IMG/VR virus record: IMGVR_UViG_2706794690_000015
Length of the DNA: 20,379 nt
Direction: 5' to 3' (one strand)
DNA from: a virus
Lineage: Duplodnaviria; Heunggongvirae; Uroviricota; Caudoviricetes
The notes beneath the pieces were generated by a model. The model worked only from the letters and a program-made list of their open reading frames with translations, was not told where the DNA came from and did not search any database. A program made the position numbers and the translations under genes. Below are positions 1,553-19,955 of the stretch, one piece after another (within the stretch, counting starts at the first letter, position 1; the number at the start of each line of letters is the position of its first letter).

Positions 1553-1753
1553 TCACGAGGACTGAAGTTTCTCGCAATTAAAATTTATCAGTTTTACTTT
1601 CTGCTCTCTGGAAACGCCTGCTTCTTTTTTACCTGAGAGCATTTTTTCGCATTCTGATTTCGTTAGTTTAGATTTTGAATATCTTGTCCAGTTAGTAGGA
1701 GTGCCACCTTCCTTTTCAATAGTGGCGGTAATTTTATACATGAACACCTCCAT
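1553..1753 (-). CDS. ydaC: Small Rac early protein (YdaC-like); start uncertain
   Basis: Track ORF 1553..1813. GGAGGTG sits just upstream of internal Mets (MEVFMYKITAT...); the maximal ORF overlaps the upstream Lar-like ORF. Confidence 0.5.
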   Translation of the reverse strand: MEVFMYKITATIEKEGGTPTNWTRYSKSKLTKSECEKMLSGKKEAGVSREQKVKLINFNCEKLQSS

Positions 1754-14957: not shown

Positions 14958-15127
14958 NNNNNNNNNNNNNNNNNNNNNNNNNNNNNNNNNNNNNNNNNNN
15001 NNNNNNNNNNNNNNNNNNNNNNNNNNNNNNNNNNNNNNNNNNNNNNNNNNNNNNNNNNNNNNNNNNNNNNNNNNNNNNNNNNNNNNNNNNNNNNNNNNNN
15101 NNNNNNNNNNNNNNNNNNNNNNNNNNN
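14958..15127. other. Run of 170 N (gap or masked sequence)
   Basis: Literal n characters in the sequence. Confidence 1.
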
Positions 15128-16236: not shown

Positions 16237-16526
16237 TGGTGAATTTACGTAAAGCGGCTAAAGGCCAGATGTGCCAGATCAGAATCCCTGGCTACTGCAA
16301 TCACAATCCCGAAACCTCTGTGCTGGCGCATTACAGGCTGGCGGGGACGTGCGGAACAGCGACAAAACCACATGATATGCAGGCGGCGATAGCCTGTAGC
16401 TCATGCCACGATCTAATCGACGGGCGGGTAAAAACCAGCGATTACACCAAAGAAGAATTGCGCCTGATGCATGCTGAAGGGGTTTTTCGCACACAAGAAA
16501 TCTGGAGAAAGAAAGGTCATTTATGA
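16236..16526 (+). CDS. YbcO-like (DUF1364) putative zinc-binding nuclease, 96 aa
   Basis: ATG overlaps the upstream stop (TAATG). Cys/His-rich (CQIRIPGYCNHNPETSVLAH, CSSCHDL); resembles DLP12 YbcO. Confidence 0.65.
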   Translation: MVNLRKAAKGQMCQIRIPGYCNHNPETSVLAHYRLAGTCGTATKPHDMQAAIACSSCHDLIDGRVKTSDYTKEELRLMHAEGVFRTQEIWRKKGHL

Positions 16527-17065
16527 TTTACCCAACGAATACAGGAAAAAGCGGAGAACACCTTCGCCTCACCACGCTGGAAAGTGTCTGGATTCAGGGA
16601 AAACTACGTATGTGGGGGCGCTGGTCGTATATTGGCGGTGGCAGGTCAGGGAATATGTTCAATCAGTTGTTGGCATCCAAAAAACTGACGAAAACAGCCA
16701 TTAATGAAGCCCTGCGCAGAATGAAAAAAGCGGGAATAGAGAAAGCTGAGCTGGAAGCGTTTTTGCGAGAGATGATCAACGGCAAGCAAAAGAGCTGGCT
16801 GGCGCATTGTACTGATGCAGAGGCGTTATGTATTGATCGAGTCATAAGTGAGGTGCTGGCAGAGCATCCAGGATTGATTTGCATTCTCCGGCAACGCTAT
16901 GAAGGGCGGGGGATGACTAAGCGCAAAATGGCTGAATTGCTAAATGATGCACACCCAGAGTGGTGTTTTAGCACATGCGAAAAACGGATTGCTAATTGGT
17001 TAGCTGTTGCTGAGTATGCCCTATATATTCCCATGCGTGAATCATTTGCTGAGAAAATGGCTTGA
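16523..17065 (+). CDS. Late-gene antiterminator Q-like protein, 180 aa
   Basis: Last gene before a strong hairpin and the lysis cassette. N-terminal W-G-x-W region (LRMWGRWSYIGGG) resembles the Q family typified by DLP12 QuuD. Family call from memory. Confidence 0.6.
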   Translation: MIYPTNTGKSGEHLRLTTLESVWIQGKLRMWGRWSYIGGGRSGNMFNQLLASKKLTKTAINEALRRMKKAGIEKAELEAFLREMINGKQKSWLAHCTDAEALCIDRVISEVLAEHPGLICILRQRYEGRGMTKRKMAELLNDAHPEWCFSTCEKRIANWLAVAEYALYIPMRESFAEKMA

Positions 17066-17175: not shown

Positions 17176-17494
17176 TCAGGAAAGCAGGGGAGAATGCTGC
17201 TAGTTGGGCAACTGGTCTTTCTGCTCCAAATTATAACAGAGACCAGTTATAGTTTCGGTGCTGTGTTTTTTTTACAATATTGTGATAACACATTGCTGGC
17301 GGGAGTTTTGATATTTCTTGGCAGGGGCTGATGATGCGTTATCCTGATGTCGTCAACTCATATAAAATGAGATGAGAGATCATTGCAGGGTGGTTTGTAA
17401 TTCGCTGTTTAGCGGGACAATATGTTGTCTGATACAAGACACCCGACGCCTCAGATTACTATAATAAAGACGAAGCATCCTTTGTATTGACCAA

Positions 17495-17518
17495 CCGCCT
17501 GTTTAGGCGGTTCTTTTT
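17495..17518 (+). terminator. Candidate rho-independent terminator
   Basis: CCGCCT-GTTT-AGGCGG followed by TTCTTTTT. Confidence 0.45.
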
Positions 17519-18050
17519 GGGCTGGTTTATTGTATGCCAAATGATTATTAAAAAGGTTGTGTTAATAACAAGATCCGAAATAATATGCCTGCATATTTTT
17601 ATCTTGCTTATATTCTGCATATTGTGCATAGCAGGCTCATCCCTGCAATCAAAACTGTATGATGAGTATTTTTTGTTTTCCTTTTTTCCAGTCATCTGAT
17701 GATGACCTGCTTCTTTTTAATCCGGATCGACATCAGTTTTTTAAGATAATTCCTGCGAGTTATATGCATAAATGCCACAAACTCCGCATTTTATGTGGTT
17801 GGGAGTTGCCGGGCGCGCAGTGAGTTTGCTAAGAAAACTCCTGCATGGTGAATCCCCCTGTGCGGTGGGGTGATACCATTAACCTTTTCTGTCGCCGACA
17901 GGTATCACGAACATTTTGTTCACCGGGAGGCACCCGGCACCATGCACTTCAATAGATTCTCTCCACATTATGGATATTCTTTCAGAATATCCCACGCAGA
18001 CTTTGTGTAAATGTTAACAAATGTGCGTTTTATTTGATCTGATTCGCTGT

Positions 18051-18080
18051 TTGAGCGTCCAAAACAACGGTATATATAAT
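18051..18080 (+). promoter_or_regulatory. Candidate sigma-70 promoter for the first TolA-like lipoprotein gene
   Basis: TTGAGC (18051-18056), 18-nt spacer, TATAAT (18075-18080); GAGGAAAA RBS then ATG 18110. Confidence 0.5.
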
Positions 18081-18109
18081 CCTTTACTATATGACATATG
18101 TGAGGAAAA

Positions 18110-18538
18110 ATGGGTTTTCGTAGCGCATCAATTCTTACGTTGATTATTAGTGGGATTATTATCGGGTGCACTGATGCTGTATCGACAAATTATCATGACC
18201 GTACATCATATTACTCCGATAAAGCAATAGAGACACAGTATGTGAGTTCATCTGAACGTACTTCTGATGTTAGTGAGGATATCCGTCTGTATGCCCATCA
18301 AATCAAGAGCGCCATCGAAAAACAGTTCGGGGATGCGAGTAAGTATTCAGGAAAAGAGTGTACACTGAGAATGCATATGGCCCCGAATGGCCTTCTACTG
18401 GAGGTTAAAAGAGAAAGTGGAGACCTCGATTTATGTCGTGAAGCGATGAATGCGATAAAGAATGCTGATATACCTGCCCCCCCTTCGCCGGAAGTATATA
18501 AAGTATTTCAAAATGGGGTGCTGGATTTTAAACCCTGA
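18110..18538 (+). CDS. Lipoprotein with TolA C-terminal (domain III)-like domain, 142 aa
   Basis: Signal peptide with lipobox IIGC. C-terminal ~80 aa (YAHQIKSAIEKQFGDASKYSGKECTLRMHMAPNGLLLEVKRESGDLDLCREAMNAIKNADIPAPPSPEVYKVFQNGVLDFKP) closely parallels the TolA C-terminus as I recall it (...PSQAVYEVFKNAPLDFKP). Confidence 0.7.
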   Translation: MGFRSASILTLIISGIIIGCTDAVSTNYHDRTSYYSDKAIETQYVSSSERTSDVSEDIRLYAHQIKSAIEKQFGDASKYSGKECTLRMHMAPNGLLLEVKRESGDLDLCREAMNAIKNADIPAPPSPEVYKVFQNGVLDFKP

Positions 18539-18688
18539 TATTTATTGTTTTGTAATAAACGGTTTCGGCTTAGGTTTGTTCTGACACAGCTACGGCACTG
18601 AGCTAAATTTAGCGGATAGTCAGCTCTGAGCCAGTGGCGGACGTAACAACTACTATTGCTGAGATTTTAATGGATTGAGGAGCAAGAA

Positions 18689-19084
18689 GTGGGATTAAAG
18701 AAAATCGTTATGTTGACTTTTTGGGTCGGTTTTGTTGCGGGATGCACACCTTTACACCCTTCAGATTGCCACAAAACTACTGCTACAGGTAGTTGCAGTT
18801 CAGGACGCTGGGATGATCAGGATGAATGGGGGGCGCAAGCGCGGGGAATCAGAGCTGCAATTAATGCCAAACTTGATGAGCCGCATAACTGGAAAGGGAA
18901 AAAATGCAGGTTGCATATGGAATTCTCTCAGGATGGCACGGCGTTAAAAATATCTACCAGTAACGGTGATAAAGCCTATTGCGAAGCGATAAAGTCCGCA
19001 GCTCATAAAGCCAAATTTCCGGCCTTCAACAATCCGGAAGTCTACAGAGATTTTCAGAAATCTGGCTTTGACATGCGAGGTTAG
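18689..19084 (+). CDS. Second TolA-domain-III-like lipoprotein (diverged paralogue), 131 aa, GTG start
   Basis: GAGGAG RBS; signal peptide MGLKKIVMLTFWVGFVAGC (lipobox VAGC). Shares GKxCxLxM...C.EA...A...PA...PEVY..FQ skeleton with the upstream gene. Confidence 0.7.
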   Translation: MGLKKIVMLTFWVGFVAGCTPLHPSDCHKTTATGSCSSGRWDDQDEWGAQARGIRAAINAKLDEPHNWKGKKCRLHMEFSQDGTALKISTSNGDKAYCEAIKSAAHKAKFPAFNNPEVYRDFQKSGFDMRG

Positions 19085-19209
19085 CTCTTCAATTACTATA
19101 TCTCATTCATAGCAAACTGACAGATTTGATGATGTTCTATATACGAAACCTGTGATGTCAAGTCTGAGCTAATACAAATAAACATAATATCAGAGAAATA
19201 CATTTTATT

Positions 19210-19233
19210 AGCTCGCTACGGCGAGCTTTTTAT
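19210..19233 (+). terminator. Rho-independent terminator after the lipoprotein pair
   Basis: AGCTCGC-TACG-GCGAGCT followed by TTTTAT. Confidence 0.5.
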
Positions 19234-19335
19234 ATTGCATCGTCTCCAGCATATATATCAATTAAGGCTCTGATTGATGTGTCTGAAAGCCTACACATAA
19301 TAACTATGCCATCCGTTCCGTGCGGAGGTGAGGCT

Positions 19336-19551
19336 ATGAAATCCATGGACAAAATTTCAACAGGCATTGCCTACGGCACCTCCGCAGGCAGTGCTGGCTA
19401 CTGGTTTTTACAGTTGCTCGATAGAGTAACTCCGTCACAGTGGGCTGCAATCGGTGTGCTGGGTAGTCTGGTATTTGGCCTGCTGACGTACCTGACAAAC
19501 CTTTATTTCAAGATTAAAGAAGATAAGCGCAAGGCTGCGAGAGGTGAATAA
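19336..19551 (+). CDS. Class II holin (phage 21 S-like pinholin), 71 aa from MKSMDK
   Basis: GGAGGTGAGG RBS; dual-start M-K-S-M; two TM segments. Track ORF starts at 19279. Confidence 0.8.
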
Positions 19552-19717
19552 TGCCTCCATCATTACGAAAAGTCGTTGCTGCTGCTATTGGTGGCGGAGC
19601 AATTGCTATAGCATCAGTGTTAATCACTGGCCCAAGTGGTAACGATGGTCTGGAAGGTGTCAGCTACATACCATACAAAGATATTGTTGGTGTATGGACT
19701 GTATGTCACGGGCATAC
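19551..19717 (+). CDS. Endolysin, SAR (signal-anchor-release) lysozyme type; N-terminal part only, truncated by N run
   Basis: ATG overlaps holin stop (TAATG). N-terminus [55 protein letters not shown] is the Gly/Ala-rich SAR domain typical of phage 21 R. Confidence 0.7.
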
Positions 19718-19955
19718 NNNNNNNNNNNNNNNNNNNNNNNNNNNNNNNNNNNNNNNNNNNNNNNNNNNNNNNNNNNNNNNNNNNNNNNNNNNNNNNNNNN
19801 NNNNNNNNNNNNNNNNNNNNNNNNNNNNNNNNNNNNNNNNNNNNNNNNNNNNNNNNNNNNNNNNNNNNNNNNNNNNNNNNNNNNNNNNNNNNNNNNNNNN
19901 NNNNNNNNNNNNNNNNNNNNNNNNNNNNNNNNNNNNNNNNNNNNNNNNNNNNNNN
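19718..19955. other. Run of 238 N (gap or masked sequence) covering endolysin C-terminus and Rz start
   Basis: Literal n characters; too short to hold the expected remainder of the endolysin plus the Rz start, so probably not length-preserving. Confidence 1.

Follow-up and report, generated by a model that had tools for sequence, protein, structure and literature searches.

Short TolA domain III lipoproteins in the late region of a Rac-type prophage: possible motor-less decoys of the Tol import system

Mobile elements encode small accessory lipoproteins of the outer membrane that protect the carrier cell from incoming phage, colicin or DNA at the envelope stage; Llp of phage T5, Cor of phages phi80, N15 and HK022, and TraT of the F and R100 plasmids act by masking an outer-membrane receptor (FhuA, OmpA). 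The periplasmic import hub, the C-terminal domain III of TolA (TolAIII), can be blocked as well: Levengood-Freyermuth et al. are said to have obtained colicin-tolerant, phage-resistant cells by exporting TolAIII in 1993, and purified TolAIII reportedly blocked fd infection in the hands of Riechmann and Holliger in 1997. Conversely, g3p-N1 of filamentous phage, when present in the periplasm, sequesters TolA and brings about colicin A resistance and a 4-log lower phage uptake (PMC10424213). Here we analyze two open reading frames, ORF1 and ORF2, in the IMG/VR virus record IMGVR_UViG_2706794690_000015, a stretch of 20,379 nucleotides (nt; "the window") from a Rac-type lambdoid prophage of Escherichia coli, which encode predicted outer-membrane lipoproteins that end in TolAIII. 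We posit, with a probability of roughly 45%, that the two proteins are decoys that give their carrier tolerance to group A colicins and filamentous phages. The precedents fit this reading, inasmuch as titrating the TolAIII interaction blocks import; they and the proposed decoys all set TolAIII against g3p-N1 or colicin translocation domains, with one partner titrated. The geometry differs in each case: in g3p superinfection exclusion a ligand of the invader blocks the TolA of the host, whereas a copy of the host receptor domain would here block the ligand of the invader, and engineered TolAIII is soluble, whereas ORF1 and ORF2 are predicted to be lipid anchored. With Llp, Cor and TraT they would share the protective role but neither sequence nor fold, mimicry of the import hub taking the place of receptor masking.

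That both proteins end in a homolog of TolAIII is beyond doubt. Pfam family PF06519 (TolA C-terminal; gathering cutoff 25 bits) matches ORF1 at 82.6 bits (E = 2e-23) and ORF2 at 54.6 bits (E = 1e-14), and phmmer against PDB sequences returns E. coli TolAIII structures as the best matches of both (E = 5e-28 and 5e-9, respectively), with 1TOL and 2X9A among the structures matched by ORF1. Residues 55-142 of ORF1 align without gaps to residues 334-421 of E. coli TolA, as far as the terminal LDFKP; ORF1 matches E. coli TolAIII at 59% of 88 ungapped columns and ORF2 at 31%, and both disulfide cysteines are retained, bearing out the parallel that an initial annotation had drawn from the letters. An AlphaFold2 model of ORF2, built with 54 relatives in the alignment, reaches a predicted local distance difference test score (pLDDT) of at least 92 over residues 45-131 and superimposes on TolAIII structure 3QDP, its best PDB match, with a template-modeling score of 0.91 and a root-mean-square deviation of 1.2 Å; all of its structural matches at E ≤0.001 are TolAIII structures. 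For ORF1, a single-sequence AlphaFold model came out poor (pLDDT 56) and was left aside.

In their homologous domain III, its disulfide cysteines, its alpha/beta fold and its C-terminal beta3 edge strand, ORF1 and ORF2 resemble TolA (PF06519; PDB 1TOL, 1S62, 3QDP/3QDR, 2X9A), but TolA also has an N-terminal transmembrane helix (domain I) that docks to TolQ-TolR and a long helical domain II, whereas ORF1 and ORF2 have a lipoprotein signal peptide and a short disordered linker (about 25-35 residues) and lie on a prophage, outside the tolQ-tolR-tolA-tolB-pal cluster. They are not full-length TolAs: the model for full-length TolA, NF007065 (cutoff 213), scores 107.8 for ORF1 and 53.7 for ORF2, both below cutoff, and TIGR02794 (cutoff 59.45) scores 47.2 for ORF2, also below, and 75.6 for ORF1, which is above but covers model positions 265-362 only. 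Lacking the anchor helix and domain II, neither protein is expected to couple to TolQ-TolR or to transmit force. The N-termini, MGFRSASILTLIISGIIIGC followed by TD in ORF1 and, from a GTG start, MGLKKIVMLTFWVGFVAGC followed by TP in ORF2, each combine an initial positive charge, a hydrophobic core (mean Kyte-Doolittle 2.97 and 2.15, respectively) and a lipobox (IIIGC followed by TD, FVAGC followed by TP) with Thr rather than Asp at +2. Both genes thus carry the lipobox signal peptides first ascribed to them, matching the pattern [LVI][ASTVI][GAS]C without Asp at +2 through IIGC-TD and VAGC-TP. Under the +2 rule of lipoprotein sorting, a residue other than Asp at this position directs Lol-dependent transport to the outer membrane; the lipobox and its Thr therefore predict, as a pattern-based assignment, that both proteins are exported, lipidated and sorted to the outer membrane by Lol. 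Three observations support the GTG start of ORF2: a GAGGAG at 18677-18682, 6 nt upstream, an in-frame stop codon at 18668-18670, and plasmid homologs that start, with MGVKK, at the identical position.

How might such proteins act? Each is a copy of the ligand-binding C-terminal domain of TolA without the motor-coupled parts, which its signal peptide would deliver to the periplasmic face of the outer membrane and which would be displayed there on a flexible linker of roughly 25-35 residues. The domain keeps its fold, its disulfide and the beta3 edge strand that in TolA is used by the TolB N-terminus, colicin N and g3p-N1, and yet could not be energized. The tethered domain would capture the TolA-binding segment of a group A colicin or of g3p before the real TolA is reached, and import would stall, leaving the lysogen or plasmid host tolerant to Tol-dependent colicins and filamentous phages.

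The two ligand-binding edges of TolAIII can be followed in ORF1. Colicin A binds the beta2 edge of TolAIII (L375-P380, with K368, K379 and K396) (PMC3365938), and the beta3 edge (A415-K420, hydrogen bonded through the backbone of D418 and K420) is the docking site of g3p-N1, colicin N and the TolB N-terminus (PMC4339652; PMC8928145). The beta3 strand of ORF1 reads GVLDFKP (APLDFKP in TolA) and its beta2 strand LLEVKR (LLDIKP in TolA), with K100 and K117 in place of K379 and K396 and a His in place of K368, so that, by residue comparison, its predicted colicin A site is near-native. Sequence entropy at beta3 is 1.91 bits in 58 short lipoproteins of the family and 2.09 bits in 44 full-length TolAs, and D418 is kept in 74% of the former versus 30% of the latter, although overall entropy is higher in the short family (2.17 versus 1.76 bits), as it is at beta2 (2.63 versus 1.98 bits); the two sets differ in taxonomic spread, and this comparison roughly indicates that the short lipoproteins vary no more at beta3 than full-length TolAs do. 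A conserved beta3 would also suit the main rival of the decoy, which shares its biochemistry but not its phenotype: a dominant-negative inhibitor of Tol-Pal, which would titrate the TolB N-terminus away from TolA and leave the outer membrane leaky and hypervesiculating, to the benefit of the release of phage (from a late promoter, before lysis), of bacteriocin or of vesicle cargo. TolA point mutants in beta3 that lose TolB binding do show a tol phenotype (PMC4339652), and exported TolAIII makes cells leak periplasmic proteins into the medium, an effect with biotechnological use (PMC6195910, citing Wan and Baneyx 1998). We consider this inhibitor quite unlikely nonetheless, for reasons that lie in the genomic contexts described below.

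A very improbable alternative is that ORF1 and ORF2 are decaying tolA fragments captured by the phage. It has a footing in public annotation: the Prokaryotic Genome Annotation Pipeline (PGAP) of RefSeq labels ORF1 an incomplete tolA pseudogene that is missing its N-terminus (locus L001, 9228-9488, corresponding to window positions 18278-18538), and the NF007065 score of ORF1 falls short of the cutoff, as noted above. However, both frames are intact, and each has a Shine-Dalgarno sequence and a complete lipoprotein signal peptide. Ratios of nonsynonymous to synonymous substitution rates (dN/dS, Nei-Gojobori) in the TolA domain of ORF1 are 0.09 against a 91% identical variant and 0.24 against a 66% identical variant, and the ratio for the domain of ORF2 against the plasmid copies is 0.07; with values of 0.07-0.24 across 9-34% amino-acid divergence, ORF1 and ORF2 are not pseudogenes but functional genes under purifying selection. 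Moreover, the lipobox Cys and the two disulfide Cys are invariant in an alignment of 54 short members, and at least 55 distinct 50%-identity clusters have the same short TolAIII lipoprotein architecture. Selection and lipobox conservation together effectively refute the pseudogene reading; since the RefSeq flag spans only the part that aligns to full-length TolA, it is an annotation artifact, and probably a systematic misannotation across hundreds of genomes.

The initial annotation took ORF1 and ORF2 for tandem paralogs between a Q-like antiterminator and a holin. The slot is as described, bounded upstream by a phrog_753 antiterminator and downstream by a P21-type holin, and homology between the two proteins is real if distant (29% identity, E = 2e-18); the implied tandem duplication was rejected on account of that low identity and of the separate histories of what are two independently acquired cassettes. 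In other lambdoid prophages, the ORF1 variants of 91% and 66% identity occur at loci devoid of ORF2, always between Q and holin, and the Q gene ahead of them is of two unrelated types (DUF1133 and PF03589). Directly 3' of the 66% variant come nanS-p/DUF1378/DUF826/holin. The position directly 5' of nanS-p/DUF826/holin is the one that stx occupies in Stx phages. DNA homology of the ORF1 type forms a block, 17437-18539, that ends at the ORF1 stop codon, and DNA homology to plasmids is restricted to 18659-19086, that is, to ORF2 and its ribosome-binding site. Because the homology blocks break at gene ends, the ORF1-ORF2 tandem seen in the window and in phage mEp460 is one particular combination, and the proteins presumably each work alone. 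Both cassettes are discrete insertions with boundaries at gene ends, as expected of morons, and further traits are shared with the lambdoid morons (lambda bor and lom; stx): cassettes between conserved phage genes, homology that breaks at the cassette ends, a terminator (here a putative one) on the 3' side, and a slot that holds other cargo in related phages. They differ from these morons in gene content and in that the ORF1 promoter is putative and not conserved.

Of 5426 complete E. coli genomes, 775 have at least 80% of the 1183-base-pair (bp) region of the pair, nearly always at ≥99% identity. The region is also present in phage mEp460_ev081, which shares 17822-19552 of the window and is the only one among 50,697 phage records to hold the genes; a scan of IMG/VR gave 99-100% identical copies only and added no diversity. 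The position of the genes in the late operon, immediately 5' of holin, endolysin and spanin, speaks for an inhibitor of Tol-Pal that promotes release. Against this, the phage already has a full holin/endolysin/Rz-Rz1 set, other cargo such as nanS-p separates ORF1 variants from the holin, and selection should disfavor a chronically leaky envelope in the 775 genomes where both genes are intact. A role for the genes as part of the lysis cassette was also rejected, relatives occurring without lysis genes.

Relatives are carried far beyond the prophage. ORF2-type genes (88% identity) are found on about 600 E. coli and Shigella plasmids, and 488 of 917 matching plasmids are typed conjugative. The leading region of pO157-type IncF plasmids houses the gene behind psiB, psiA and hok; in all five sampled I-complex plasmids (IncK2/Z, IncI1/B/O) it lies 68 bp 3' of the relaxase gene nikB on the same strand, apparently as the final member of the oriT (nikAB) operon and at a fixed backbone position. 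Two contigs binned as Lachnospiraceae and Treponemataceae metagenome-assembled genomes (L098 and L099) also have an ORF2-type gene next to a 903-amino-acid protein of nikB-relaxase size, and are most likely misbinned fragments of enterobacterial I-complex plasmids. F and I pili are the receptors of the Ff and If1 phages, and TolAIII is their coreceptor; carriage on plasmid types whose pili are those receptors fits the decoy reading.

A second fit comes from bacteriocin plasmids. Klebsiella ColRNAI plasmids of about 10 kilobases (kb) encode a colicin-like tRNase, an immunity protein and a lysis protein together with a TolAIII lipoprotein. On K. pneumoniae p1_020030 (10,060 bp; locus L003, 4908-5641), the gene for the latter (123 amino acids, LLLTAC followed by K) overlaps by 4 nt a gene for a TonB_C protein (121 amino acids, Sec signal), and the pair, which is divergent from the tRNase/immunity/lysis operon, recurs in many small Klebsiella plasmids. 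Like ORF1 and ORF2, the TonB_C protein is a ligand-binding C-terminal domain alone behind an export signal on a mobile element, here translationally coupled to a TolAIII lipoprotein gene; it differs in belonging to another domain family, in having a Sec-type signal peptide without a lipobox, and in being absent from the window. Tol and Ton are the two import routes exploited by colicins, and Howard et al. reportedly found in 2001 that periplasmic TonB fragments block TonB-dependent import. The pair looks like a two-gene "Tol plus Ton decoy" module, and its presence on a bacteriocin plasmid fits the decoy reading. The same plasmid could be cited for a dominant-negative effect on Tol-Pal, in that the TolAIII gene adjoins a colicin-like operon with a lysis gene, but the TonB_C companion has no obvious role in leakiness, and ORF2-type genes that follow a relaxase gene, lie in a plasmid leading region or reside in chromosomes have no lysis genes nearby. 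Mobile-element carriage, the pairing with TonB_C and the retained beta3 edge make the decoy reading more credible.

Several points weigh against a decoy role. The beta3 strand (GFDMRG) and the colicin A site (ALKIST) of ORF2 have diverged. Should the decoy bind TolB as well, envelope integrity would be expected to suffer, and the breadth of protection is made uncertain by the E-type nuclease colicins, which contact TolB and not TolA directly. PADLOC models gave no match to ORF1 or ORF2, and literature searches on the two proteins and their relatives turned up no paper or experiment on any family member. The promoter upstream of ORF1 is putative, and expression of the pair in the lysogen is accordingly a prediction. 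Finally, ORF2-type genes of 65-89% identity lie in the chromosomes of about 18 further species of the Enterobacterales (genera Klebsiella, Enterobacter, Citrobacter, Leclercia, Pantoea, Buttiauxella, Raoultella, Rouxiella, Kluyvera and Yokenella), at nonsyntenic, ordinary-looking places among LysR regulators, glutathione peroxidase, hydrogenase and umuDC, so that a purely mobile-element defense role is not assured. These chromosomal genes were found with a narrow alignment of the ORF2 subfamily, broader alignments being too diverse for a genome scan.

The chromosomal genes, in many genera and in unrelated nonphage contexts, suggest instead an envelope lipoprotein with a different partner, either a physiological accessory of Enterobacterales since acquired by mobile elements or a protein with a part in conjugation or host interaction (compare lambda Bor), with the TolAIII fold serving as a generic beta-augmentation module. 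This reading applies especially to the diverged ORF2 subfamily with its chromosomal members. Beyond its diverged binding edges, that subfamily has a linker of its own: after the lipid-modified Cys comes a nearly invariant extra Cys pair, C27 and C36 (GC-xPLHPxxC-HKTxAxxSC; 18743-18800, residues 19-38), which suggests a small disulfide loop and which ORF1-type proteins do not have. The fixed place right after nikB in I-complex plasmids and the company of the gene on Klebsiella IncFIB/FII plasmids point in the same direction; on the latter a gene for a 144-amino-acid TolAIII lipoprotein is preceded by one for a thioredoxin-fold protein (L085, 5229-6258; L088, 6217-7246) that matches Thioredoxin_2, with weak similarity to DsbA/TraF, and may be a dedicated disulfide-forming partner. 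We nevertheless regard a different partner as unlikely overall: at 59% identity, ORF1 stays close to E. coli TolAIII and has near-native ligand sites, the bacteriocin plasmid that pairs TolAIII with TonB_C singles out the import machines, and no data suggest an alternative ligand. Extending the decoy reading, we advance only tentatively, as a possibility, that short TolAIII lipoproteins and secreted TonB_C domains are widespread, unrecognized "motor-less receptor decoys" on prophages and on the conjugative F-like, I-complex and bacteriocin plasmids of Enterobacterales, and that they would give broad tolerance to Tol- and Ton-dependent colicins and to pilus-specific filamentous phages.

A profile run against 1.84 billion representatives yielded 594 relatives at E ≤0.001 and 240 at E ≤1e-10. 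Among the best 150 relatives, 55-58 are short (105-175 amino acids) with a lipobox, 44 are ordinary long TolAs, and a few are short with Sec-type signal peptides; Asp at +2 occurs in none of 55 short lipobox representatives. All named members come from Enterobacterales and bear automatic names only ("cell envelope integrity protein TolA", "colicin import membrane protein"), and the PHROGs entry for the family, phrog_5772, lists its function as unknown. The viral structures in BFVD gave no match at E ≤0.001. The domain assignment is already public; the literature searched yielded no account of a family with this architecture, of its spread on mobile elements or of its function. One lead, EDL933_2012 as a "TolA" in a ciprofloxacin transcriptome paper, was dropped, as the supplement names the gene "tail fiber protein" only.

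The features discussed are collected in Table 1. The initial annotation gave ORF1 a near-consensus sigma-70 promoter and closed the pair with a terminator. The hairpin and T-run of the terminator are there as a consensus match, and terminator-like hairpins also lie 3' of related cassettes. The promoter-like site is likewise present but is a pattern match not conserved in relatives: it is identical in mEp460_ev081, its -10 element is TGTAAT in the 91% variant, and nothing equivalent was found 5' of the 66% variant; promoter-like matches in the region number 11, versus 6.8 ± 2.2 in shuffled sequences. Given such a site and the hairpins 3' of the cassettes, expression of ORF1 and ORF2 could be constitutive in this allele, due to late read-through, or both.

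Upstream of ORF1, about 1 kb behind the Q-like gene holds no convincing gene. About 400 nt 3' of the Q-like gene stands a promoter-like AAGACA-18-TATAAT (17436-17465), and within about 30 nt of it a strong terminator-like hairpin, AACCGCC-TGTTTA-GGCGGTT plus a T-run (17493-17512); the signals in 17436-17524 could be the late promoter and tR' region of this Q type. A small RNA (sRNA) gene of the STnc100 family directly precedes the ORF1 promoter-like site and is co-inherited with ORF1, lying within the homology block 17437-18539 (loci L093 and L094) and within the stretch 17822-19552 shared with mEp460. Partial second STnc100-like segments occur 3' of ORF1 in L094 (7608-7655 and 7724-7760). A 2026 preprint relates STnc100 to the PasD sRNAs of Stx-type prophages. 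STnc100 was rejected as a pR' leader, the identical STnc100-ORF1 block standing behind two unrelated Q types.

The prophage has an integrase at its left end and recET-sized frames, and RalA identifies it as Rac-type, together with the hokD and trkG genes of the identical RefSeq locus, the latter 3' of the lysis genes. The Q-like antiterminator is preceded by a gene of the YbcO family and one that is NinB-like (phrog_319); 3' of ORF2 come the P21-type holin, endolysin and Rz/Rz1. Two runs of N interrupt the window, at 14958-15127 (170 bases) and 19718-19955 (238 bases); the second hides most of the endolysin gene and leaves the lysis cassette only partly readable.

Table 1. Features of the ORF1-ORF2 locus and related loci (window positions unless a locus is named)
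Feature	Position	Strand	Details
ORF1	18110-18538	+	142 amino acids, predicted outer-membrane lipoprotein; Shine-Dalgarno GAGG at 18102-18105
ORF1 signal peptide			Residues 1-19
ORF1 predicted lipid-modified Cys	18167-18169		Cys20
ORF1 Ser/Thr/Tyr-rich linker			Residues 21-54
ORF1 TolA domain III	18272-18535		Residues 55-142
ORF2	18689-19084	+	131 amino acids, predicted outer-membrane lipoprotein; GTG start
ORF2 predicted lipid-modified Cys	18743-18745		Cys19
ORF2 TolA domain III	18818-19081		About residues 44-131
Sigma-70 promoter-like site 5' of ORF1	18051-18080	+	TTGAGC-18 nt-TATAAT; 10/12 consensus matches, pattern only
Intrinsic-terminator-like hairpin closing the pair	19210-19233	+	AGCTCGC-TACG-GCGAGCT, then TTTTATATT; pattern match
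STnc100-family sRNA gene, directly 5' of the ORF1 promoter-like site	17813-17999	+	Rfam RF02076, full-length, 86.6 bits (gathering score 47)
Q-like late antiterminator, upstream boundary of slot	16523-17065	+	phrog_753, 266.7 bits; Pfam DUF1133 and borderline Phage_antitermQ match
P21-type holin, downstream boundary of slot	19279-19551	+	RefSeq start of essD at 19336
RalA sRNA (antitoxin of RalR)	1557-1735	+	RF02694, full-length, 225 bits
nikB-adjacent ORF2-type gene	L087 8965-9396; L118-L121 3465-3896		

If the decoy reading is true, about one-seventh of sequenced E. coli genomes (775 of 5426 complete ones) carry this exact pair, and hundreds of clinically relevant plasmids (pO157, IncI/K/B/O, Klebsiella Col) carry related genes, so that all of them would have a sequence-independent shield of their own against an entire class of protein antibiotics as well as against filamentous phages. 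Such a shield would bear on colicin and bacteriocin therapeutics, on M13-type phage delivery vectors, and on how conjugative plasmids persist in the face of pilus-specific phages. Mimicry of the periplasmic import hub would join the known envelope-level strategies of exclusion, and the study of TolA-TolB force transduction would gain a natural tool. Should the proteins weaken Tol-Pal instead, they would give prophages and plasmids a means of controlling vesiculation and the release of toxins.

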